Positions 2,904 to 53,589 of a stretch of DNA of 64,000 bases are shown one piece after another. The notes beneath the pieces were generated by a model. That model was not told the origin of the DNA and ran no database searches. It saw only the letters and a program-made list of their open reading frames with translations. The DNA is from Mobula birostris. Lineage: Eukaryota. Within the stretch, counting starts at the first letter, position 1. Each line of letters starts with the position of its first letter. The translations under genes were made by a program, and so were the position numbers. The stretch lies in NCBI RefSeq assembly GCF_030028105.1, contig NC_092371.1:132314766-132378765 (forward strand), written 5' to 3'.

Positions 2904-3459
2904 TAGTAAGTGGAAGAACACAACATCCACTTTGTTTTGGTGTGTGTGTGTCGGGGGGTGGGGGTGGAACACATTTGCCAATCATTATCTTTGTGAAGTC
3001 GGCAGCATTTTGTGAAGATTAAGCTGATCAGGAAGATTCTTCCTTGTGGTTTCCCATTCAGTAATCATTCTCCATTCCTGAGCACTGACACCATAGTCAT
3101 ATTTTTACCCATGTGTTGTACTTCCTAGCAAAAAAAAAAACATTAAGCAAGTTTAAAATTCTCCCCCTCTAAGGGTCATCTGGGTTGTACAGTTTCCCTG
3201 CTGAGCTCACCCAACAGTCAAAAGCTGTGAGTTAAACTTGGAGCTTACCCAGTCACTATGCTGACGTATAATGCTAAGGCACCATCTTTACCCACTTGGA
3301 TGTAAATAGACATTTGTGCACTTTATTTAACCCAGTAGTGGGGATTTCAGTTTCTGAGTAATGGATACTGAGATCAGGTTGATCTTGAAAGTATCCAATC
3401 TATGAAAAATTAGCTTCATACAGTTCAATACAAAATAAATTAAACTTTAAAACTTCATA

Positions 3460-3952
3460 TAGGGTACCTCCTGTACCTAATAAGGTGGTCATTGAGTATA
3501 TGTTTGTGGTTTTCTACTGCTGTAGCTCATCCACTCCGTGGTTCAACATGTTGTGCATACAGAGATGCTCTTCTCCACACCACTGTTGTAATGTGTGGTT
3601 ATTTGAGTTACTGTCACCTTCCTGAGCTTGAATGTGTTTGGCTATTCTCCTCTGACCTCTCTAATTAACAAGGTGTTTTCGCCCACAGAACTGCTGATCA
3701 CTGGATTTTTTTCCACACTATTTTCTGTAAACTGTGGATGAAAATCCCAGGAGATCAGCAGTTTCTGAGATACTCAAACCTCACCAACAAATATTCCACA
3801 GTTAAAGTCATTTAGATCACATTTCTTCCCCATTCTGAACCTCTTGACTATGACTGTATGCTTTTATGCATTGAGCTGCTGCCACATGATTGGTTAATGA
3901 GATATTTGCATTAATGAGCAGGTGTACCTAATTAAAATGGTCACTGAGTGTA
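3460..3952. mobile_element. Non-autonomous Tc1/mariner-derived element
   Basis: Ends in aggtgtacctaattaaaatggtcactgagtg-TA, a Tc1-type terminal sequence, with a direct copy gtacctaataaggtggtcattgagt near 3474; no ORF. Confidence 0.6.
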
Positions 3953-4151
3953 CTTTATATAATAGTAAATAACTGCAAATTAAATGCAATTAGCAGTAGT
4001 GCAGTAATTGATTTAGAGCAAGGACTGCGGGGCACTCCTTGGTGTGGTGAGTTTAATATATTGGTGTGCTGGTAATAAAGTATCTGGATGGTCAGCACTA
4101 GACTGTATTTCTCACTGTCAGTGATGAAGGATGTGCCAGTTGGCTTAATAA

Positions 4152-4355
<204 letters not shown>

Positions 4356-4935
4356 TAACAGTACCAGCTTCTCGATGCCGATTGCCGCGTTACAAAAAAG
4401 TGTGTCATGGCTTTAGAGCATAAGAGACATGTTGAAGACTGTTCCCATAGCTGAGAGGTAATACCTGTCTGGATAAACAGCCTTTGAGCTCTTTCCTCTG
4501 CTAGTTATGAATAGTTTGAAAGCGCAGGTTTACAAAACGTATTCCACTCCATCTCATGAGGGAGAAAGAAGATTTAGAGTTTCTAAATGCAGTTTAATCA
4601 CAAATAATTCAGGAAGACACTCTGTAATCAGAGAATAGATAGAAATCCAAACCTACTATATCAAGAGGTAGTATTTCTGGGGAAATTGGAAGAGCACAAA
4701 AAGAATGGGGCAGTGTTAAGGGAGAGTTAGGTGAAGAACGTTGAGTGTTGTATATAAAATCTGGTGCGGATCGGTGAGTCAGAAGACCTCTTTTTGTATA
4801 ATCTGTGTTACTTGAGGGTGAGGGAGAGATGATGAATCATTTGCTGAAAGTTTGAGGAGGCTTGTTCAGATTGGGAATGAAACCTGAAAGCTGTGGTGCC
4901 ATTTATCCTCTGAGCAACAGGGAGCTATAGTTTAA

Positions 4936-5220
<285 letters not shown>

Positions 5221-5449
5221 TGATCTCAACTTGGCTGATAGGATAACATTCTTCAGGGTGTTGCTCAGTTATTCCCAGCTGCACAGGCAGACTCGGAATT
5301 CTCAGAAGAAGGCAGCTTAAGGATGAGGTTTATGGTGTCAGGCTCACTGTAGGTGAATAAATTGGAATCTGTCAGAATCCATTAAGTTTTAATCACAATT
5401 CCTTAAAGACTTCAGGAATAAACACTGAGAAAAATATCTGCAGCTGGAG

Positions 5450-5690
5450 TCCCTAAGGCAGTCCTGCGTTGATTTCAACGCTAACCGGCAACTCCTGCAA
5501 TGTCGCTGGTGCCAACCTGTATCGGTCTCTGCCACTCCTTTGGATTCATCAGCTGCGTGGAAGGATGGATCCTGCTACATGGGCAATGGCTTGCTCTCTA
5601 TTACATATTGTCCTGGCTTGTGTACTGGTTTGCATGTGATAGCTAGGATGCAATGTCCATAGTCAACCCCGACCAAAAGAGGGCCATCAT
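5450..5690 (+). mobile_element. SINE-like repeat related to the element at 18505-18800
   Basis: Shares ctggtgccaa.ctgtatc...c.cttgga..catc.g...tg...tgc..catggg/acaa with 18630-18720; its 3' end matches the reverse complement of 38725-38775. Confidence 0.55.
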
Positions 5691-6041
5691 TGTCATCTGA
5701 AGGCCACTTAGCTGCGAGACTGGAAGGTAATTGTTTCTCATTGCATAGTACAGCTAAAATAACGTGGCCTTGATTAGATAAGCTGGTCCCCTGCAGTCTG
5801 GTCTGGTGATCAAAGCTGGCTTACAGCCACATTGTGGCTCGTTGCTACAAGATGCATTTACCACAGATCCACCAGTAGATTGCTTTTCTTCCTAATTTTG
5901 GTGCTGTGCCTTGTTCTATATAAACTTTAACAAATTCTTTAACTGGGTTGAATTGAGGAGGTGACACCAGCTTTCAGTTTTGGAAGGCAGCTGAAGGTCT
6001 GAAATAATGGGCAGTTGTGAAACACTTTTTTTTTCCAACAG

Positions 6042-6169
6042 GTATCCTGGATACTTTGGAAGGAGTGAATGCTGGCCCAGTGAGATTCCCCCGAGACGTC
6101 TCAGCACTTTCTGTGACTGTACCAAACAGCACAGTGAGATTGATTGGTGCCAGCCTGCAGATGCATTGA
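6042..6169 (+). CDS. YIPF3: YIPF3 terminal coding exon
   Basis: Poly-pyrimidine ttttttttttccaacag| acceptor; completes the phase-1 Gly codon and encodes GILDTLEGVNAGPVRFPRDVSALSVTVPNSTVRLIGASLQMH, TGA at 6167-6169. Confidence 0.93.
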
Positions 6170-6306
6170 CCCTGCGTAATCTTGGGATTTCTGTTTCCTT
6201 CTTGCTCTCAGAGATCCGAGGGTACTGCGTACAGACCGTGCAAGGTGGAGGGTACTGAGGGGAAGTGTTTATACTCTCCTGTAGACAGCCGTACCTGTAC
6301 CTGCAG

Positions 6307-6476
6307 AATAAACTGCTTCATCATACTAGTAGGGACGGGGCTGTGGTTCAACACTTCCCCACGTCAACAGATCAAGACAAGTGTATATAATTGAGCATTA
6401 CTTTTAAAAAATACATATGTGACTTTTGTTGTTTGATTTCTCATTGCTTGGAAGAGTTATTGGATTGTTAAATAAA
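6307..6476 (+). terminator. Candidate YIPF3 polyadenylation signals
   Basis: AATAAA at 6307-6312 and 6471-6476 downstream of the stop, in AT-rich UTR. Confidence 0.55.
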
Positions 6477-6559
6477 TGCATGTCACTTGTACAACTTTTA
6501 TTTAGTTAAACAAAACTACAACAATTCTGGCCCAGGAGTGTGAAAATCCTTCCCCCAGA

Positions 6560-7910
6560 GTGGAGCAGAGCTGTAGAAATTGGCATTGATTCCCAGAAGT
6601 AGCTTCAGGTTGGAGCTGTTGACTTCTGTAACTAGGGTAGGAGAGATGGCCTCAGTAGATGGAGGAAAGGGTGAATTCTCATTCCCTGTGACTCAGCAAC
6701 TAAAGAAACAGCAGAATTAAGTCACTGACCTCGCATTGAATAAAATACTGGATGAACTTCCTGCTCAGTTCTATGCTGCGATGTGAACCCTCCTCCCCAG
6801 TGTTGGTCTCAGACTGTGCCTCTTCCCTGCTCCTCCCCATTTCCTGCTCACCAGCACCCCTTCTTGTATCACTGCTCATTGTCATCCTCGCTCTCCTTTA
6901 CCCTCAATCCCCTTTGCATGATGCTGCTCTCTCTTGCCCCACCTCCACTATCCCCTTGCTCCTGCCTTGTACTCCGTGCAGTGTGAGTTACTGAGAGTGG
7001 TGGGAAGGAGGAGTTTTGTGCAAAAACAGTATTCAGGAGGTTCATTTTCCTGAATATTCCATTGGGATTGAGGATGGCCTTCCATGTGAGATTTTGTGGT
7101 GACTGATGAAACACTGGGGAAATGGCACACTCTTCTACACATGGAGTAGAGGGTGCCAGAATGGGTGGATGGCTGATTTGGGAAGTGATCTGATCCTCAT
7201 GACCTTTACGCTGGACTCCTTCCTGATTTACCTAACTCTAGATTTCCTTTGCCATCCTGGCTGCCACTGACTTTAGCATGTTGTGGGCCAAGGATTCTCA
7301 CAAGTTGATGGGGAGATGATTTTTTTTTTCAAGAAGATTTTGAGCACGTTGTTTAATCTTTTCCTCTCTCAGCCTGGTATTCTCTTCCTGAGACAAAGTA
7401 TTTGTTTCAGGAATCTGGGGTCAGGTATATGAAAGACATGGCCTGTCCATCATTACCAAGATCTGGATGCTTGGGAGAAAAGACTGATTTTGGCTTGTTT
7501 GTCCATCTGTTCAACTTGGAGAAGATGGCATTGTAAGTGTTTTTCCAATGCCTTCAGATGCCTGCTGTAGGTGGTCCAGAGTCTCAAACACAAGACGGAC
7601 CACCAACAGCAGGCATATGAAGGCATCACTGCTGCTTGATAGACCATGCGTTCTATGTCTGATCTGAAGTCTTGATCTTCAAACCCATTTCCTCAATCAT
7701 TGGTGTAGTGAAGATGAGAATGAATTTCATCATTGATATCTGCTTCACTGAGAAATGGCTCCTGAGGCAGAGGTTAAGTGGAGCCTCCTGTGGAAGGTAT
7801 GGCTGTTGAATTGTTAATGTTGTACAGAACAGAACAGAACAATCCAGGGCGCGTTGAGAGTTCCTCACTGCATCTTGTTTGGCACTTTGGGCAGCAACCA
7901 TACCATTTCT
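6560..7910 (-). mobile_element. Degenerate RTE-clade LINE
   Basis: Minus ORF 7453-7647 VYQAAVMPS...WTTYSRHLKALEKHLQCHL resembles the RTE/BovB 'VY.AVV...WT.Y.RH.K.LE.FHQ.CL' region; upstream KADINDEI-like motif near 7720-7750. Confidence 0.7.
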
Positions 7911-8704
7911 CTTGCATTTGTGTGTTTTATGAGGCCAAGTTGCTAGCTCGATGCCTCAACCCAGCACGGATGGAAAACATGCAAGAAGCTGGCCGGATTT
8001 GAATCTGGGATCTCTTGTTCTGAAGTACATTGAGGTCAGAGTAAAGCAAAAAGGCTTGTGTCAAATACTGGAATATTAATACACCAGAATCCTTGAAAAA
8101 TATAGAATGTATAGGAATGAAATTGGAAGAGAATAAAGGGAAATAAAGAGAGGAAATTAAAAATACTGGCAAGTGAACTCAATGAAAATTCAAAGGTGTT
8201 TGGAACTAGCAAGAGAAAAAAGAGAAGAATGATGGTGGCTTATCAAAAGTCAAAGTTTCATTTATTACCAAAGTATACAACTCTGAAATTCTTCTCCAGG
8301 TAGCCACGAAACCAAGAAAGAAAAGAGTGGCAACACTATTATCAACCCCCAAATCCACTCCCCCGAACAAAAAAAGGAGAAAGATTGGGCAAAAACACAG
8401 AATATAAAATACTGTAAGACTGAATAAAAAAAGTGCTTGCAGTTTAATGTCATTGTCGGGCAAATAACTAGAATCAGTTCTGATGTTTGATCTAAACCTC
8501 TTTAACAAGGCACAGATTAATAAAGTACAGTCAACTTCAATTTAAGGGATGGTTGTGTCTGACTAATTTGATTGAATTCTTTGAAGAGGTAACAAAAAAG
8601 ATCAATGATAGCAGTGTATTTGATGTGGTCTACATGAATTTTAGCAAGGCTTTTGATAAGGTCCCCTGTATTAAAGCGAGTGGAAGTAGTAAAACCCATG
8701 GGAA

Positions 8705-9875
8705 CAATAAGACATAGGAGCAGAATTAGGCCATTTGGCTCATCAAGTCTGCTCCACCATTCAGTCATGGCTGATCCTCTTTTCCCGTCCTCAGCCCACT
8801 CCCCGGAACTTTTGATGTGTTGTTCAATTGAGAACCTATCAAGCTCTGCCTTAAATACCCCCATCAGCCTGGCCTCCACAACTGCCCGTGGTAATAAATT
8901 CCACACATTCACCACCCTCTGGCTAAAGAAGTTCCTCCTCTTCTCTGTTTTAAATGGATGCCCCTCTATACTGTGGCTGTGCCCTCCGATCCTAGACTCC
9001 CCCACCATGGGAAACATCCTTTCCACATCGACTCTATCTAGGCCTCTCAACATACGAAAGATTTCAGTGAGATACCCCCCCAATCCTTCTAAACTCCAGT
9101 AAGTACAGACCCAGAGCTATTAAATGTTCCTCATATGATAACCCTTTCATTCCCAGAATCATCCTTGTGAACCTCCTTTGAACCCTCTCCAATATCACCA
9201 CATCTTTTCTTAGATGAGGAGCTCAAAACTGTTCACAATACTCGAGGTGAGGCCTCACAAGTGCCTTATAAAGCCTGAGTATTACATCCCTGCTGTTGTA
9301 TTCTAGACCTCTTGAAATGAATGCTAACATTACATTTGCCTTCCTCACCACCAACTCTTACCTGCAAGTTAACCTTTAGGGTGTTCTGCACAAGGACTCC
9401 CAAGACCCTTTGTATCTCAGATTTTGGGATTTTCTCCCTGCTTAGAAAATAGTCTGCTCATTTATTTCTTCTACCAAAGTGCATGACCATGAGCATTGTA
9501 TTTCATTTACCATTCTCTTGTCCATTCCCCAAAACACAAAATACTCTGCAGATGTTGGGGTTGCTGTTTGTTTCCACGAATGCTGCCCAACCTGCTGAGT
9601 TCCTTCAGCGTGTTGCGCGTGTTGCCTTGTCTGTTCTCCTGATCTGTCTAAGTCCTTCTGCAGCCTTCCTGTTTGCTCAGCATGAACTGTCCGTGGCACC
9701 AATCTTTGTATCTTCCACATACTTGGCACCAAAGCCATCTATTCCAACATCTAAATCATTGATATACAGCATAAAAAGAAATGGTCCCAACACCAACCCC
9801 TCCAAAATACCACTAGTGATTGGCAGCCAACCAGAAAAGAATTCTTTTATTCCCACTTTCTACCTCCTATCCAGG
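8705..9875 (-). mobile_element. CR1/HER1-like LINE 3' half
   Basis: Minus ORF 8517-9083 GLDRVDVERMFPMVGESR...RRNFFSQRVVNVWN is the CR1 ORF2 C-terminus; interrupted near 9533-9625 by a Penelope-tail fragment. Confidence 0.85.
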
Positions 9876-10645
9876 AAGGAATGGCAAACTGCATCCAAAA
9901 TAGTGACAGAATTGATGTTTTTTTTTAAACAGACTGTTGACCAGTGAAATCTCTGTTTTGCACCTGGTCACTTACATTTTGTTCTATTCATTAATTACGG
10001 AGAAAATGTAAAGGGGAAATATAAATAAGTCTGCAGGTAATACAAAAATTAGCTGTATAGTTAACAGGAAAAAATTCTTAGATTCCAGTGTGGCAAAAAT
10101 AATTGACAAATTTAATGCCGAAAAGTCTCAATTGTAGAAGGTGAGAGACTATATATTAAGTGGCAGGATATCAAGTGGTATGAAAAAGCACATCCACAGA
10201 GCCTTAAAGGTAAATGACGGGTAGATATGCTAGTCTAAAAAGTCATACAAGATACTTTATTAATAAAAGCCAGAGAGTGAAAGAGAAGGGGAAACCATGG
10301 CAGTTGCTGAAAGCCTGAAACCAAATGGAAAATGAATTAGAACTTGAATTAGTTTATATTTGTCACAGGTACCTAGATACAATGAGTTAAGGTAGCGCAA
10401 GGTAAAAAGTTCAAAGTATATTTATTATCAAAGTACATGTTACTTTGCAAAGTACATGATTCATTTTCTTGCAGGCATACTTAATAGATGCAATAACCAT
10501 AATAGAACCAATGAAGGAGTGCATCCAATAGGGTGGACAACCAGTGTTCAAAAGACAACAAACTACATATATAAAATTTAAAAAACAATAATAATTAATT
10601 AATAGATAGATAAATAGACAAACAAATGAGCTGGCAAGCAATAAA

Positions 10646-11044
10646 GCTACACACATCAAAGTTGCTGGTGAACGCAGCAGGCCAGGCAGCATCTCTAGGA
10701 AGAGGTACAGTCGACGTTTTGGGCTGAGACCCTTCCCCCCTCCCCCTTTTCCTTCTCCCCGGACCTCCTGTCCCATGATCCTCTCATATCCCCTTTGCCA
10801 ATCACCTGTCCAGCTCTTGGCTCCATCCCTCCCCCTCCTGTCTTCTCCTATCATTTTGGATCTCCCACTTTCAAATCTCTTACTAGCTCTTCCTTCAGTT
10901 AGTCCTGACGAAGGGTCTTGGCCCGAAACGTCGACTGTCCCTCTTCCTAGAGATGCTGCCTGGCCTGCTGCGTTCACCAGCAACTTGATGTGTGTAACTT
11001 GAATTTCCAGCATCTGCAGAATTCCTCGTGTTTGCGTTTTTAAA
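10646..11044 (+). mobile_element. Penelope-like element pLTR insertion with inverted 5' arm and 13-bp TSD
   Basis: 10649-10735 is the reverse complement of about 10910-10995; flanked by the direct repeat ggcaagcaataaa at 10633-10645 and 11045-11057. Confidence 0.8.
10901..10936 (+). ncRNA. Minimal type I hammerhead ribozyme motif (Penelope pLTR)
   Basis: AGTC-CTGACGA-A-GGGTCTTGGCCC-GAAA-CG-TC-GACT: intact catalytic core, stem I agtc/gact, stem II GGG/CCC, palindromic ACGT in place of stem III. Confidence 0.7.
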
Positions 11045-13739
11045 GGCAAGCAATAAATATCAAGTACATGAGATGAAGAGTCTTTGACAGTCCACAGGTT
11101 GTGGGAACAGTTCAGTAACCCTCTGGTTCTAGAGCCAGATGGCTGAGGGGTAGTAACTGTTGCTGAACCTGGTAGTTTGGGTCTTGAGGTACCTGTACCA
11201 CCTCCCTGATGGCAGCAGCGAGAAGAGACCATGACCTGGGTGGTGGGGGCCCCTGATATTAGACATTGCCTTCCTACAATGCTCAATGGTGGGAAGGGCT
11301 TTACTCGTGGTGAACTGGTCATATCCACTACTTTTTGTAGGATTTTCCATTCTAGGCTGTGATGCAGCCAACCAACTTACACTCCATCTATAGAATGTTG
11401 TCAAAGTTTTTGATGCCATGCCGCATCTTCACAAACTTCTAAGGAGGTAGAGGTGCTGCCGTGCTTTCTTCGTAATGGCACTTGTGTGCTGGGCCCAGGA
11501 CGGGTCCTCTGAAATGAAAACACAGAGGAATTTAAAGTTGCTGACCCTCACCAAACAATAACAAAACACAGAATACAGCATAACAGCTCCAGAGAAAGTG
11601 CAGTGCAAATAAGCAATACGGCGCAAGATCAACATGAAGTAGATTGGGAGGACAAAAGTCCATTTTATTGTACTAGGGAACCATTCAATGGTCTTATAAC
11701 AGTGGTGTTAGAAGTTGTCCCTGAGCCTGGTGGTATGTCCATTCAGGCTTTTGTACCTTCTGCCCGATGGGAGGGGAGAGGAGAGAAGAGAATGTCTGGG
11801 GTGGGTGGGGCCTTTGACTATGTTGGCTGCTTAATGAGAATCAGAATCAGGTTTATTATCACTGGCATGTGACGTAAAATTTGTTAACTTAGCTGCAGTA
11901 GTTTAATGCAATACATAATCTAGCAGACAGAAAAAAATAATAAATATAATAAATAAACAAGTAAATCAAATACATATATTGAATAGATTAAAAAATAACA
12001 TGCAAAAACAGAAATACTGTATATTAAAAAAGTGAGGTAGTGTCCAAAGATTCAATGTCCATTTAGGAATCAGATAGCAGAGGGGAAGAAGCTGTTCCTG
12101 AATCACTGAATGTGTGTCTTCAGGCTTCTGTATCTCCTACCTGATGGTAACAGTGAGAAAAGGGCATGTCCTGGGTGCTGGAGGTCTTTAATAATGGAGG
12201 TTGCCTTTCTGAGACACCGCTCCCTAAAGATGTCCTGGGTACTTTGTAAGCTAGTATCCAAGATGGAGCTGACTAGATTTACAACCTTCTGCAGCTTCTT
12301 TCAGTCCTGTGCAGTAGGCCCTCCATACCAGACAGTGATGCAGCCTGTCAGAATGCTCTCCATGGTACAACTATAGATATTTTCGAGTGTATTTGACATG
12401 CCAAATCTCTTCAAACGCCGAATAAAGTACAGCCGCTGTCTTGCCTTCTTTATGACTACATCGATATGTTGGAACCAAGTTAGATCTTCAGCGATCTTGA
12501 CACCCAGGAACATGAACTTGCTCACTCTCTCTACTTCTGATCTCTCTATGAGGATTGGTATGTGTTCCTTCATCTTAGTTTTCCTGAAGTCCACAATCAG
12601 CCCTATGGACAAAGTCCATGGAGGAGAGACTGGTTCAGTGATGTGCTGACCTGTATCCACAACTCTTTGCAGTTTCTTGTGGTTGCCATACCAAGCCATG
12701 ATACATCCAGATCAGATGCTTTCTGTAGTGCATGATAACAATTGGTAAGGGCTGATAGGGACATGTCAAATTTCTTAAGCCTCCTTGGTAAATGGAGGCA
12801 TTGGTGAGCTTTTTTAGGCTGTGGTGTCTACATCATCGGTGATGTTCGCTCTGAGGAACTCCGTTGATGTAAGGCGGGAGCATGCGCCCCTTCCTGAAGT
12901 CATCGAATGACCAGCTCTTTTGTTTTGTCGATATTGAAAGGTTGTTGACATAATACAACGTTACTAACCTCTCAACCTCCTGTCTTTAACAATGGTTGTG
13001 GCACAGCCCAATGCAGTAACATCATCTGCAAACTTAGAAATGAAGTTAGAGCAGAATCGCAGAAGCATGCGTGGGCAAACAGTAGAGGGCAGAAGATGCT
13101 ACCTTGCGAGACACCAGCGTTTAGAATAATCATGATGGAGGTGTTGCTGTCTTTCCTTAATGATTGCAGTCTCAATCAGGAAGTCGAGGATCGAGTTGCA
13201 GAGGGAGGCTCTAACTCCCAGGGTCCAGAGTTTGGTGATAAACTTGCTTGGACTTGTAGTTTTTTTTTGCTGCAGCAGCAGTACAGTACAATATGTAATG
13301 TGTACGATAAATTACGATAAGAAATATATACAATAAGTAGTTCAGAAAGAGAGCAATGATAGTGAGGTCGTGTTCGTGGGTTCATTGTCCGTTCAGAATT
13401 CCGATGGCGGAGGGAAAACTGGTGCGTGTGTCTTCTGATCCTGTGTAGTGGCCCCTCCATACCAGACGGTGGCGCAACCAGCATGTACACCTGCAGAAAT
13501 TTGTCCAGTCGTCGGTGACCGTACCAAATCCTTCACACTCCTAATGAAATGTCGCCTCCGCTGGCGTGACCTCTTCGTACTTCCATCGATATGTTGAGCC
13601 CAGGAATCTTAAGAAGCCTAAAAATATATAAAATCGATAAACCTTTCTGCTAAATGCTCAACCCTGGGAATAAAACTGCATATTTGGGCGCATTTAAAAT
13701 AAATATTACAAATGCTTACTGGTTTCGAACTTAGTGTGT

Positions 13740-14070
13740 ATAAAGACAGTTTCATCTGCAACTTGCCATTAGAGTGGGGGTGGAGAGCAAGCTGTTCAGC
13801 TCAATAGTAGACCGGCCCGAAATGCCGCTTCTCCCCTCCCCCAGCCTCCTTTGTTCCAGCCTGTTTAAAAGCTCCACATTCTCCGGGAAGTATGTGGCCG
13901 CTGGAAAACACTGGTGCTTTGCGGTGTTGGGGGACGGGAGCAATAAAATGTGCTGATAAAGGCCCGTGTCCTGAAATTGGCTCTGCTAAATGTTTCCGGC
14001 CACCTCTCTGCTACAAAGTTCAAAGTAAATTGATTATCAAAGCACGTTTTGAAAAAGTATTCTGGCCGTG
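13740..14070. promoter_or_regulatory. Candidate orphan enhancer/regulatory element
   Basis: Non-repetitive, CpG-retaining segment with clustered TF-like motifs: CCTTTGTT (SOX/TCF), ACATTC (TEAD-like), CCGGGAAGT (ETS-like), CAATAAAA (HOX13/CDX), TGATAA (GATA), CAAAGTTCAAAGT (HNF4-like), ATTGATT (ONECUT). Confidence 0.35.
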
Positions 14071-15261
14071 CCCCCCACAACTATTTTCACATTTTATTGT
14101 CTCATTTTCGAAATTTAAAATATATTTTAGTAGGATTTTTGAGCTAATCTACAAAACATTGTGCATCATGTCAAATCAAAAGATAAAATTCCAAAACCTG
14201 TTAAAAAGTATTCATCCCCTTTGTGATTCGATGCTGATTTTTCCCAGGTTCTCCTTACAAACTCACACCATTTGTTGATGTAGAAAATTGGAGGATCGGC
14301 TGTTTTCAATGAATTCATAAGAATAAATACTTTCTCTCTCTGTAGGGTCCAACAGTATGGTAGATTTCCAACAGACCAAACCAAAATGAAGACAAAAGAG
14401 CATTCAAGATAAATCAGGGAAATGATAGTGGAGAAGCACAAATCTGAGGAAGGGTACAAGACCATCTCCAAGGCACTGAACAGACCCTAGAGCTCAGTGC
14501 AGTCCATTGTGAAAACTGGAAAAAATATGAAACCACAGATACACTGCCTCAGTCAGGCTGCACCTCTGAACTGTGTCGCTGCTACTGAGAGGCCAACAGT
14601 CACTCTGAGTGAGCTGCAGGATGCAGTGGCTGCATCTGGAGGTGAAGTTCATGACTCCAACATCTTTAAGGCCTAGTACAAAAGGGTATTTATAACAGTG
14701 ACAAGGAAGAAGCACTGGCTAAAAAAAAAAGTGTAATTTATAAGATACTATAAAGATGAGGAAGAAGGTTTCGTGGTTAGATGAAACTAAAGTGAAACTT
14801 TTTGGCCTCAACTCTAAGCAGTATGTGTGGCATAAATCTAATACTGCACATAAGCCAGGTAACACCACTCCTACAGTAAAGTATGGTGGAGGTAACATCA
14901 TACTATGGGGATGCTTTTTAGCACCAGGGGCTGGAAATATGGTCAAGATTGATGGGAAGATGAACACTGCTGAATATAGAGAGATCCTGGATAAAAACCT
15001 GTTAATCTCTTAACAGCTTTAAACAGAAAGCTTAAACTGGGGAGGAAGTCGGTCTTTCAGAAGGACAACGACCCAAAGCACACTGCCAGAGCAACCATGG
15101 AGTGGTGTCAAATGAAGAAAATTCATGTCCTTGAGTGGCCCAAAGTCCTGATCTTAATCTGATCGAACATCTCTAGTAAGACCTCAAGATTGCTGTTCAC
15201 CGCCGCTCCCCAACTAACCTGGCACAGCCTGAACAATTTTGCAAGGAGGAATGGGCAAATG

Positions 15262-30300: not shown

Positions 30301-30690
30301 TTCATATAGCCACCATCCTCTGTAGAAAAAGTTGCCCCTCATGTTCCTGTTAAATCTTTCCCCCCTCACCCTCAACGTATGCTCTCTGGTCCTTGATCCC
30401 CCAATCCTGTGGGAAAACAATGTCTTCATACTATCTGTACCATTCAGTATTTTACACGCCTCTGTGAGGTTGCCCTCGGCCTGTCGTGCTCCAAGGAATA
30501 AAGTCCCAGCCTGTTCACCCACTTGCTGTAACCCAGTCCCCTGAGATCAGTAAATCTTTCCTGCGCTCATTGCAGTTTATCGACTCATCAGGACCTACTC
30601 CTCCTTTTCCTGGGACCTTACACCACTGCTACTCCGTTCTGTGCTGTCCATGCTCTTTCTCTAATGGTTATTTTTCCAACTTGCTCCTAG

Positions 30691-41379: not shown

Positions 41380-42116
<737 letters not shown>

Positions 42117-49840: not shown

Positions 49841-50431
49841 AGGAATCATGCTGTTAAACAAGCAAAAGTGCAGGAAAGATTGACTGGGATGTTATGTAGA
49901 TTTAGGGTCCTGTGTTACAAGGGGAGGTTGCGTAAACTAGAGTTATGTTTTGTAACTTCAAAGTACCAAACTAATTCAAACTAAATCAGATTCTGAAATG
50001 TGAATACTTAAGGAAGGCATGCATATATCATGTGGTAGTGTAATGTATGTAATTCATGTATTTTTACATATAAATTATATAAACAACATATTTAATCAAA
50101 CAAAATATTAAATACACAGCACTCCTTCCTGCTTAACTATAAACTCGACCTCAATAGAAAATGCATGTCAGCTTTATACAAAGTGTACTATATAAAGTAT
50201 ACAACTGCTACATAGACATCTACAGAATAGTAAATTTTAAATTGTCCAATTCAAACCTGAAGATTTAATCACTGTGGAGGATTTGTTACTCTTCTGGGAT
50301 GATGTCTTTCCTGACAAGGAGCATCACTCTGCATGGTAGCTGAGACGGTTTCAGGTCTGGGGCCTCCTCTGTGGTGGTTGAAGGAGTTGATTCTGAGGCT
50401 GTAGGAAGTCGTTCTGACAGCTCTGGACATA

Positions 50432-51018
50432 TTTCTTCTCCCATGTTCTTTTAGATTGTGCATCTTGATCTTGGGACCGTGGATTTAGTTCACTAGGGAA
50501 TTCTCATTAATTTTTCAATTGCTTCCTTTACGATCTGATCCCCCCTCTTGATTTCCACATCCACATCATCTGATGAATCCTGTTTTCGTATGTCCATTGA
50601 ACCTTTCTCTTTGACCTTCCATTCATCCAGCTGGGCTTTGGTGTTTGCATCCACTTTTACATGTAGCTGTTTGTCTCCCACTTGAAGTTCATGCAATCAT
50701 CTTAGTGCACACAGAATAGATTTTGATTCTTTACACTCACAAAAGCCGAATGCTTGCAACTTTCCTGAAGCTCTTCGAACTCTTCTAGCTTAAAACCAAG
50801 TCACCTTTTTCAAGTAACTGCCTGATTAGTATATCAGGAGCTTTCTCAGATGTGTTACCAACAAAAACTATTGTAATTTGACCACTGCTTTCATCACTTC
50901 TATGATTTCTCTGAGCAGTATGGTCCTCCCTTGATTCAATATGCCTTCCAACCAGAGGCACAGACGTTGGCCCCAACACCTGTCTGCCCTCTGCTGACAA
51001 CGTTCATTGTGTACAGCA
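50432..51018 (-). pseudogene. RBM25: Processed RBM25 fragment (N-terminal RRM region) inside the Gypsy element
   Basis: Frameshifted translation gives VFVGNTSEKAPDILIRQLL..LVLS*K..ASGKLQAFGFCECKE..LR*LHELQVGDKQLHVKVDANTKAQLDEWK..DQIVKEAIEKLM..SELNP.SQ, matching RBM25; no introns; stops and frameshifts present. Confidence 0.9.
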
Positions 51019-51838
51019 TGAAGACAGTTGTGGCATCATCCTTTCCTAATTCATGTTCAGTTGAATGTTTTGCGGGGGATGTGGCATGCAAATGGTGAAT
51101 GGATCTCCAATCAAGTAGTGGTTGTCTCAGATAATCACACCCCCACAATGCTGGTCTTCCTCTTTTTACCACATGTGGTTTGTTGGTTGTTGTATCTCAC
51201 TATTATGAATGTCATTCCCACAGGCATTATCTTTTCTCCAGTATAAGTTCTTAGCTGGATATCTGCAGGCTTCAATTTAGTATCTTTGAAATGCTGTTCA
51301 AACTCATTTTGTGGAATGACTGAAACAGCCGAGCCAGTGTCCAATTCCATTTTAAGTGTGCACTTCTGTTTGTTGCTAGTTTTCACATTGTAAATCTTAA
51401 GGTGACACAGCCCTCTATCCCTTTCATCAATATCTGATTTTTCATCAACAGCATGCAGTGTAGCCCTTTTTTTTTGAAACTGCAACTTTTTATTTTTTCT
51501 CTTCCCTGTGCAGTCCATTTACTTTTGTCTGCCCAACATGCTCTTTGTATGTGCCCTACTTTGGTGCATTTTCTGAAAGCTTCACCTTTAAACCTGCATT
51601 GGTCTGGTGTATGTGAGCCTCTGCCACAAAGGTAACACTATTTGTTTGGCCAGTCTGATTTCTGTTTAGACAGTGTCATTTTGTTCACACTCACTTTTAT
51701 TCCTGACTGCAACTCAATTGCATCTCTGTCTGCTGCTTCCATTGATACAGCAATTTCAACTGTCCTTTTAAATGCAAATTGTGCTTCAGTTAGGAGCTGT
51801 TTTTTTGAATACTTTCTTTCATGTTTCCACAAACTAAA

Positions 51839-51884
51839 CAATCTCTGTACATCATTAAACCCAATCTCTGTACATCATTAAACC
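51839..51884. repeat. 23-bp tandem duplication in Gypsy gag
   Basis: caatctctgtacatcattaaacc repeated twice. Confidence 0.9.
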
Positions 51885-52678
51885 CATTTCCAATCTGACA
51901 ATGGTCAGACAATCCCTCTAATTTAGCTAAGTATGCTGAAATGGACTCTGATCTGCATTGCTTTCACAATATCAGCAAATTTTATTGCTGCTGGTTTGGC
52001 TGGAGCAGTCCAACTTCAAAGAAAACTGTATGCCTTTAAACTCAGCAAAACTGGTACACATTTCTCATTAATATTTCATTTGGTTCAAAATACTATTCAA
52101 TTTGCTGAATATACCCATTACCAGTTGAGCAATCTTCCTGATGTAGCAGCCATTTCTGCTTTCTTTTATGGTTATTATCACCTGGTACTCACTGTTTATG
52201 AACCTGTAAATTCTTACATATTCTGCCTTTTTAAAAAAACTCAATCATGTCTCCCTTCTGAAGTACACATGCTGCATTGTCTTTTTAAACTTGACTGTTC
52301 CTTATTGTGCTTCAACTGTTTGGTAGTTGTCTCGGGCTTGTTTTAAAAATGCCTTGTCACCACTTCAAAACATTGAAGTTTCAAAGTTTCGTAACTTCAA
52401 ACTAATTGTTAGGAAGGCACAGGAGTCTGAATTGTGAGTCTAACCATGTTTACTTTAAGTGAGGCACACTCGTATCACATAGTAGCATAATGCAATTCAT
52501 GTATTTTTACATATAATCATAATGAATTATGTAAACAACAAAGAATGCTTAATCAAGCAACATATGTACAATATTATTCAAATATTAAATGCACAACAAC
52601 TGGGACTTTATTCCCTGGAATGTAGAGGATTGAGGAGTGACTTTATAGGGGTATATAAAATTGTGAGATGCATTTTAA

Positions 52679-52986
52679 GGCATCCGTTAGTCTTGCGAGA
52701 CCATGAATCTGTGCCTGGAAAATCTTCACTCTCCAGGGCGCATGCTTGGGCAAGATTATTTGGGGGACTAGCAGTTGCCCATACTGCAAGTCTCCCCTCT
52801 CCACGAGACCAATGTTGTCCAAGAGAAGGGCATTAGGACCCATACAGCTTGGCACCAGTGTCGTTGCAGAGCAATGTGTGATTAAATGTCCTTGCTCAAG
52901 GACACAACATGTTGCCTCGGCTGGGGCTTAAACTCACAACCTTCAGGTCGCCAGTCCAATGCCTTAACCACTTGGCCACGTGCCCA
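52679..52986 (-). mobile_element. tRNA-headed CORE-type SINE (second copy)
   Basis: Reverse complement aligns along its length with 18505-18800; inserted in a CR1 3' fragment. Confidence 0.75.
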
Positions 52987-53589
52987 CAATGAGGTGCATA
53001 GACAGTGTGAAAACATATGCAGGGCTACTAAAACCAAGAGGGCATCAGATCAGAGGCAAGAGATTTAATAGGGACATCAGGTGCATCTTCCATGCACAGG
53101 GTGGTGTGTAGCTGCCAGAAATTGTGGTTAAGGTGGACACATTTATAATGTTTAAAGCTATCTGGAGAACTACATGGATAAGAGATGTTTAGAGGGCTAT
53201 GGGCCTATTACAGACACATGGGATTGGGTCACTTGGCAACACAGATTGGCCAAAAGGCCTGTTTTCATGCTGTAAGGCTCTGTGATTTCTGTTGCTCTAT
53301 TACCATTTGTAATTAACAGTGATCTTCCAGCTTCCTGATCAACAACCCTTCAGTATAGAAGACGTGTCTCCTCTCCACTTACTTCTGATCAACAACCCTA
53401 CAGTTAGCATCATTTCAACATTCAGGTTCCTATGTCTGATGTAGGAGAACCATATGTCCTTCATTAACAAAAAGGTTCATTAGAGATATACTTCTTGTGA
53501 CAGTTGGTAAAGTTCTATGTTCCCCAAACCATCCTTACACTACCGTCATAAACAGCATCCTCACGTCAACCACTTTTGCCTGGTTTTAC

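Follow-up and report, generated by a model that had tools for sequence, protein, structure and literature searches.

The 64-kb window, by which we mean the whole stretch of DNA that was analysed, carries on its minus strand a dead Gypsy element devoid of its pol core. The element probably gained a fragment of RBM25 when reverse transcriptase (RT) jumped to an RBM25 mRNA packaged alongside it and returned; spread in trans to hundreds of sites is likely to have followed. By its sequence features it classes as a non-autonomous derivative of a Ty3/Gypsy long terminal repeat (LTR) retrotransposon. The mechanism as such has already been described; what is new is the apparent scale and the capture of a minor isoform. 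The 5' join, which keeps the frame, is notable too.

RESULTS

A Gypsy Element without Its pol Core

A first-pass annotation made from the letters of the window had proposed the order LTR, primer binding site (PBS), gag, protease, and linker, followed by RBM25 and then by a pol tail, polypurine tract (PPT), and LTR. We found every part in its place on the minus strand (Table 1). The RBM25 fragment runs from the end of one exon through a non-canonical 16-codon segment into four exons that include the RRM, and it stops ∼2 codons short of a splice donor. The window has a GC content of 43% and is rich in LINE remnants; a second copy of the chimeric element is absent from its 64 kb.

Table 1. Parts of the chimeric element in window coordinates
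Feature	Position	Strand	Remarks
Target-site duplication, upstream copy	52599..52603	-	CCAGT on minus strand
5' LTR	52363..52598	-	TG start; similarity to 3' LTR stops at 52377
PBS-like site	52352..52362	-	TGG start, adjoins LTR; degenerate; assigned by position only
gag, zinc knuckle at 51637-51536	51488..52153	-	Stops and frame changes; tblastn P0168, P0169, P0173
Aspartic protease	51177..51470	-	DTG motif near 51341; Pfam only E 0.054
Protease-RT linker	51035..51175	-	Matched to P0168, up to residue 420
5' junction zone	51020..51034	-	A-T-T-V-F resembles RBM25 and Gypsy; protein level
Intron-free RBM25 fragment	50432..51034	-	2 stops, 3 frame changes
pol C-terminal tail, ∼57 codons	50260..50431	-	12-relative profile E 0.024; tblastn E 0.02
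PPT	50122..50134	-	Purines 12/13; abuts 3' LTR
3' LTR	49941..50121	-	TG start; end ACT, not ACA
Target-site duplication, downstream copy	49936..49940	-	CTAGT on minus strand

The Gypsy relatives used for comparison are fish and unnamed polyproteins retrieved with the protease frame, and their domain order is PR-RT-RH-IN. In tblastn searches they match the gag, zinc knuckle, protease, and linker over 52134-51020 (P0168, E 4e-38; P0169, E 4e-58). The match breaks off at residue 420 of P0168, a protein of 1,319 residues, and returns only in the final ∼57 codons. There, a C-terminal motif at 50346-50260 is the top match in six frames of the window to a profile of the C termini of 12 relatives, yet a weak one (E 0.024); the comparison of the pol tail with P0171 gave E 0.15. 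RT, RNase H, and integrase had no match anywhere in the window at E ≤ 0.5. The earlier proposal that pol was replaced rather than interrupted is borne out by the stop of the Gypsy match at the linker, its resumption at the C terminus, and the absence of the core from the window: ∼840 codons of RT/RNase H/integrase are gone, and ∼600 nt of RBM25 are found in their place.

Fish Ty3/Gypsy elements (P0168, P0171, and P0173) resemble the element in having a single gag-pro-pol frame, a zinc knuckle, a DTG protease, the linker, and the C-terminal motif. RT, RNase H, and integrase are missing here in contrast to these relatives, and an RT-based clade assignment is thus not possible. Pfam searches with the broken frames detected neither an RRM nor gag. 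The lone Pfam match over nine broken frames, Phage_Gp17, was set aside as a chance match. A search of cluster representatives returned no close parent spanning both junctions, and an Atlas look-up with the linker gave scores below 0.9.

The Insert Is a Spliced Fragment of RBM25

The insert is a spliced RBM25 fragment from the host lineage. Its best protein match is a Heptranchias RBM25-like protein (72% identity, E 2.5e-28), as expected from the RBM25 identity, RRM included, that had been read from the letters. The best 120 of 363 matches at E ≤ 0.001 either bear the name RBM25 or are RRM proteins without a name, and the RBM25 match is colinear across 50982-50432, in three frames. In a 25-row tree the insert forms a long branch that groups with two shark-type RBM25 proteins (support 100/99). 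With a shark protein as the nearest RBM25, the host is probably a cartilaginous fish. A PDB search yielded weak RRM matches only, the best with E 0.014. The length of ∼590 nt first assigned to the piece is near the ∼603 nt that we find, but its start lies further upstream than had been assumed (∼51034-50432): we moved it to ∼51034 because the stretch ATTV.MLYTMN..EGRQ is either RBM25-derived or common to both parents.

Exon boundaries were inferred from the starts, ends, and insertions of RBM25 protein fragments and isoforms. The signs are a VLVPT start (P0128), a KCGL start in 2 proteins, and SGKLQ|AFGF, which is an end in 13 proteins and the site of an insertion in 5; many isoform insertions sit after KKEE. 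One boundary was observed directly, at genomic locus L001: residue 163 of P0122 is preceded by an acceptor, and residue 223 is followed by the donor that lies ∼2 codons beyond the end of the insert. The insert crosses the inner boundaries gap-free, including the acceptor seen in L001, with no intervening DNA, which upholds the claim of a spliced mRNA source.

The region 51060-50400 contains no A-run longer than 5 and no AATAAA/ATTAAA signal, and the RBM25 piece ends mid-CDS. An inner target-site duplication (TSD) of at least 8 nt around the piece was not found; three 6-7-nt repeats are common to the junction zones, none of them flush with both. The piece thus has, as had been claimed, neither poly(A) nor a separate TSD. 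The piece does not show the marks of a LINE-mediated processed pseudogene, namely an mRNA 3' end with poly(A) and a TSD of its own.

Two other ORFs in the window encode RRM proteins. Both are intact, intron-free, and similar to cold-inducible RNA-binding protein (CIRBP), with lengths of 175 and 137 amino acids (41589-42116, plus strand, and 63828-63415, minus strand). They face each other and are 79% identical over the RRM, and their best single-domain PDB match is CIRBP. They are possibly a cluster of functional retrogenes.

A Minor RBM25 Splice Form in the Insert

The captured RNA appears to have been a minor splice form with an X2-type join, since the insert contains both the 16-codon segment and this join. 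The segment is present in only 3 shark-type isoforms among the 171 RBM25 proteins compared. In the shark RBM25 proteins, VLVPT is preceded by MLYTMN..EGKQ, with which these proteins start; the sequence in an unnamed transcript protein is APATT-VS-MLYTMN..EGKQ-CFTQ-VLLPT. The window reads DATTVF-MLYTMN and then AEGRQ-VLGPT, with 10/11 residues at 51034-51002 identical to P0122. The Q|VL join in the insert is of the isoform X2 type, not X1. We looked for a full-length RBM25 of a shark or ray that includes the extra segment; of the 9 proteins retrieved, none came from a named cartilaginous fish.

A teleost RBM25-like isoform X2 (P0091) has an insertion that begins with LYT, and it sits at the exon boundary where the shark proteins (P0001/P0121/P0122) have their MLYTMN segment. 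The MLYTMN/LYT segment is perhaps a conserved alternative exon of RBM25; a literature search found nothing specific to it among the papers listed.

Insertion Site and Decay of the Copy

The element inserted integrase-style into an older LINE and generated a 5-bp TSD, of which 4/5 letters are kept. The TSD proposed earlier was recovered as CCAGT/CTAGT on the minus strand. The two LTRs (52598-52377 and 50121-49941) align with a local score of 117, compared with a mean of 33.7 and a maximum of 54 in 300 shuffles. The 5' LTR finishes with ∼14 irregular letters (52377-52363), and the PBS-like site follows with its TGG start at 52362. The repeat that hosts the element has another copy at 30490-30590, which agrees with the upstream flank as far as the TSD (19/20) and continues past the insertion point into sequence resembling the downstream flank (score 37.5; shuffle mean 2.7, maximum 24.5, n = 500). 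Of the three repeat copies used to test whether the flanks are contiguous, the remaining two did not pass (47701, 11.5 versus a shuffle maximum of 32.5; 1722-1671, 10 versus 17.5).

This copy is dead, as had been concluded before: stops, frame changes, and diverged LTRs are all present. The LTR pair differs in 31 of 169 aligned columns (K2P 0.21). The RRM core of the insert is identical to shark RBM25 at 67/88 positions; among 120 RBM25 proteins, identity is at least 91%. By simulation, an identity of 67/88 corresponds to ∼12% neutral nucleotide change, close to half of the LTR divergence. The copy has probably decayed neutrally by about 10-12%.

The ratio of observed to expected CpG is 0.05 in gag-pro (51040-52150) and 0.28 in the RBM25 part (50432-51035), both from small counts, and the depletion is consistent with methylation-driven decay. 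The gag region holds a perfect 23-nt tandem duplication (51839-51884). Next to the element, ∼52650-53050 is a repeat of very high copy number, for which the summed depth in run X1 reaches 879,000. Its start is tRNA-like by eye, and it is probably a SINE.

The Junctions and the Origin of the Insert

The chimeric junctions are not an artefact. Contigs from organism A, which is likely the source's own sample and hence not independent, span the two junctions as well as the 3' flank, with 0 differences. The bridge from the 3' LTR into the flank is record 25 of X9 (0 differences), from the same sample as the best DNA source. In organism B, the 3' junction is bridged by record 18 of X5 with 7 differences in 276 letters, and the 5' junction by record 12 of X12 with 5 in 253; by appearance, the runs X9 and X12 are DNA at low coverage. 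As both junctions are bridged in contigs of organism B, this copy likely predates the split between organisms A and B.

At the 5' junction, A-T-T-V-F agrees at the protein level in 4/5 residues with A-T-T-V-S of RBM25 (P0122) and in 4/5 with A-T-P-V-F of Gypsy (P0177), a short match whose Gypsy side rests on fish relatives that are 42-55% identical. The motif A-[AT]-x-VF is found in the four closest of 22 Gypsy relatives. The linker, read earlier as ending in DDATTVF, is indeed present, but ATTV(F) fits both parents. Such an overlap with both parents is what microsimilarity-guided switching would predict and supports it at the protein level. The linker and MLYTMN share one open frame, so that the frame is kept across the 5' join. 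The last RBM25 residues before the 3' junction are E-K-K (50440-50432).

In one contig of X12, which has a depth of 14.9, three letters are all that separates 50428 from 51180, so that it represents an element without linker and RBM25. The break is no more than ∼4 nt away from the RBM25/pol junction. The contig is possibly a deletion derivative, or it may mark a switch hot spot.

Two other routes to the chimera have to be weighed against template switching. A LINE-made RBM25 retrocopy could have landed in a Gypsy element, with a later deletion taking its 3' part together with pol before the product was amplified. The window is full of LINE remnants, the X12 contig joining 50428 to 51180 shows that internal deletions ending near the 3' junction exist, and a preprint links vertebrate retrocopy numbers to non-LTR content, with CR1/Tx1 elements outside mammals. 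However, this route requires two events, and it is at odds with the lack of poly(A) and of an inner TSD of at least 8 nt and with a 5' junction that overlaps both parents; we consider it improbable. Alternatively, a break in a Gypsy copy could have been repaired at the DNA level by microhomology, from an RBM25 cDNA or processed pseudogene, and the repaired copy then amplified. The end product would be identical, with a spliced insert, replaced pol, and short overlaps. No older RBM25 pseudogene source was seen, however, and an RBM25 divergence of ∼12% leaves, next to an LTR age of ∼10% (both rough values), little room for a pseudogene phase, which makes repair quite improbable.

Copy Number of the RBM25 Insert

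The RBM25 insert is multicopy. Contigs belonging to this copy have a depth of 7.5-10.7 in X1. The summed depth of four insert bins is 4,124-14,739 in X1 and 3,383-11,933 in X5, or 450-1,610 times (X1) and 488-1,721 times (X5) the depth of the own contigs, a ratio whose floor would be 15-56 in the worst case that overlapping contigs counted each base 31 times. Summed depth in the gag-pro bins is 26,000-82,000 in X1. Summed contig depth does not equal copy number, and within the insert its values lie anywhere between about 220 and 19,800. Six RBM25 sites are covered in X1 by 103-118 contigs that carry another letter. The earlier guess that the chimera may be a multicopy family gains support from the depth and from these more than 100 variant contigs. 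At 13 insert sites (among 40 of 793 variant rows), the other letter leads to the shark residue at 8 sites and away from it at 1; it is silent at 2 and has another effect at 2. Because the letters move toward the shark residue in this way, we conclude that the deep pile is RBM25-derived and on average nearer to the parent than this copy is.

The chimera itself might still be a one-off or low-copy element, with the deep pile contributed by separate RBM25 retrocopies or by another repeat. In line with this, no diverged copy spanning a junction is among the 32 long pieces listed, and next to the 3' junction the depth is no higher than about 220, ∼25 times single copy. High depth is found in all four insert bins, however, and in both organisms variant contigs extend past sites adjoining the 3' junction. 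At 50443 and 50445, beside this junction, 16-18 X1 contigs have another letter, and the best of them reach 34-35 letters beyond the site. A low-copy chimera is very improbable; that multiple copies share both breakpoints has only indirect support.

DISCUSSION

The reading that we favor is template switching during reverse transcription. RT would start at the 3' end of the element RNA and jump from the pol tail to a co-packaged RBM25 mRNA, close to the end of an exon, as donor template. After ∼600 nt of the minor splice form had been copied, RT would return to the element at the linker via a short stretch of similarity. The resulting chimera would retain the LTRs, PBS, and PPT, and the product could be inserted by a helper's integrase. 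Autonomous relatives would then re-mobilise the chimera in trans, and this copy would later decay neutrally, by ∼10-12%. Co-packaging, the two template switches, trans-mobilisation, and neutral decay are steps that we infer.

Since the 5' join is in frame, the founder could have encoded a Gag-protease-RBM25(RRM) fusion, in which an RRM carried in the particle aided RNA export, packaging, or shielding. We regard this as a speculative and unlikely extension of the model. If true, it would explain how a pol-less chimera came to hundreds of copies, and the case would be one of a transposon domesticating a host domain to further its spread.

Should the copy number hold, one capture has spread a fragment of a splicing factor to hundreds of sites, far more than the 6-9 copies of the crocodilian endogenous retroviruses (ERVs) discussed below. 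Many datable copies would allow a direct test of selection on the captured domain while the element was mobile, and the insert preserves a minor, shark-type splice form of RBM25. Such families would also raise the numbers of retrocopies counted in cartilaginous fishes, for which LINEs are usually held responsible. A 2026 VGP preprint counts 14,081 retrocopies in these fishes and credits them to LINEs. RBM25 has 0 occurrences in the main text of that preprint. A literature search showed, among the titles and abstract openings listed, no description of an RBM25/Gypsy chimeric family.

The chimera combines the marks of an LTR-mediated retrocopy, namely a spliced host mRNA, a discontinuous element with part of its ORF replaced, and no poly(A) or inner TSD. 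For animals, such retrocopies are described by Tan et al. (2016; PMC5131818), who report microsimilarity at 25/29 Drosophila junctions and chimeras that were re-mobilised. The same source credits LTR elements with 5/7 young retrocopies in zebrafish and 4/10 in chicken. LTR-mediated retroposition is therefore known, as the first-pass annotation had it, but its remark that the process is reported less often in vertebrates needs care in view of these counts. Our element shares with the cases of Tan et al. an internal mRNA fragment that is cut at both ends and replaces part of the element ORFs, the retention of both LTRs, and the lack of poly(A) and an inner TSD. Further mobilisation as a non-autonomous element, which they describe, is likely for ours, and the proposed switch near an exon junction recalls the switch back in their BLASTOPIA cases. 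The microsimilarity at their switch points may have its counterpart in the 4/5 residues per parent at our 5' junction, seen at the protein level. Their re-mobilised cases amount to 18 sites for nine retrocopies, whereas depth suggests hundreds here. In addition, the host is a cartilaginous fish, outside the species that they treat, and the captured RNA appears to be a minor splice form. Host mRNA pieces inside LTR ends are also known from maize Bs1 and human HERV-K/FAM8A1 (via Tan et al., 2016; PMC5131818), which concern other hosts and other elements; Bs1 has three genes, and FAM8A1 is a single case.

Among vertebrates, the element resembles CrocERV31-nectin3 and CrocERV29-KIT ligand (Chong et al., 2014; PMC4299795), where an LTR element likewise captured a host mRNA and multiplied. 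As described there, nectin3 stands in for a viral gene and the element is shared between species, again as in our case. These ERVs are present in 6 (nectin3) and 9 (KIT ligand) copies, with env replaced or nothing lost, and their ORFs are intact and under purifying selection, whereas the copy described here is broken. It also differs from them in being a Gypsy element, in having lost the whole pol core, and in carrying only a partial host fragment.
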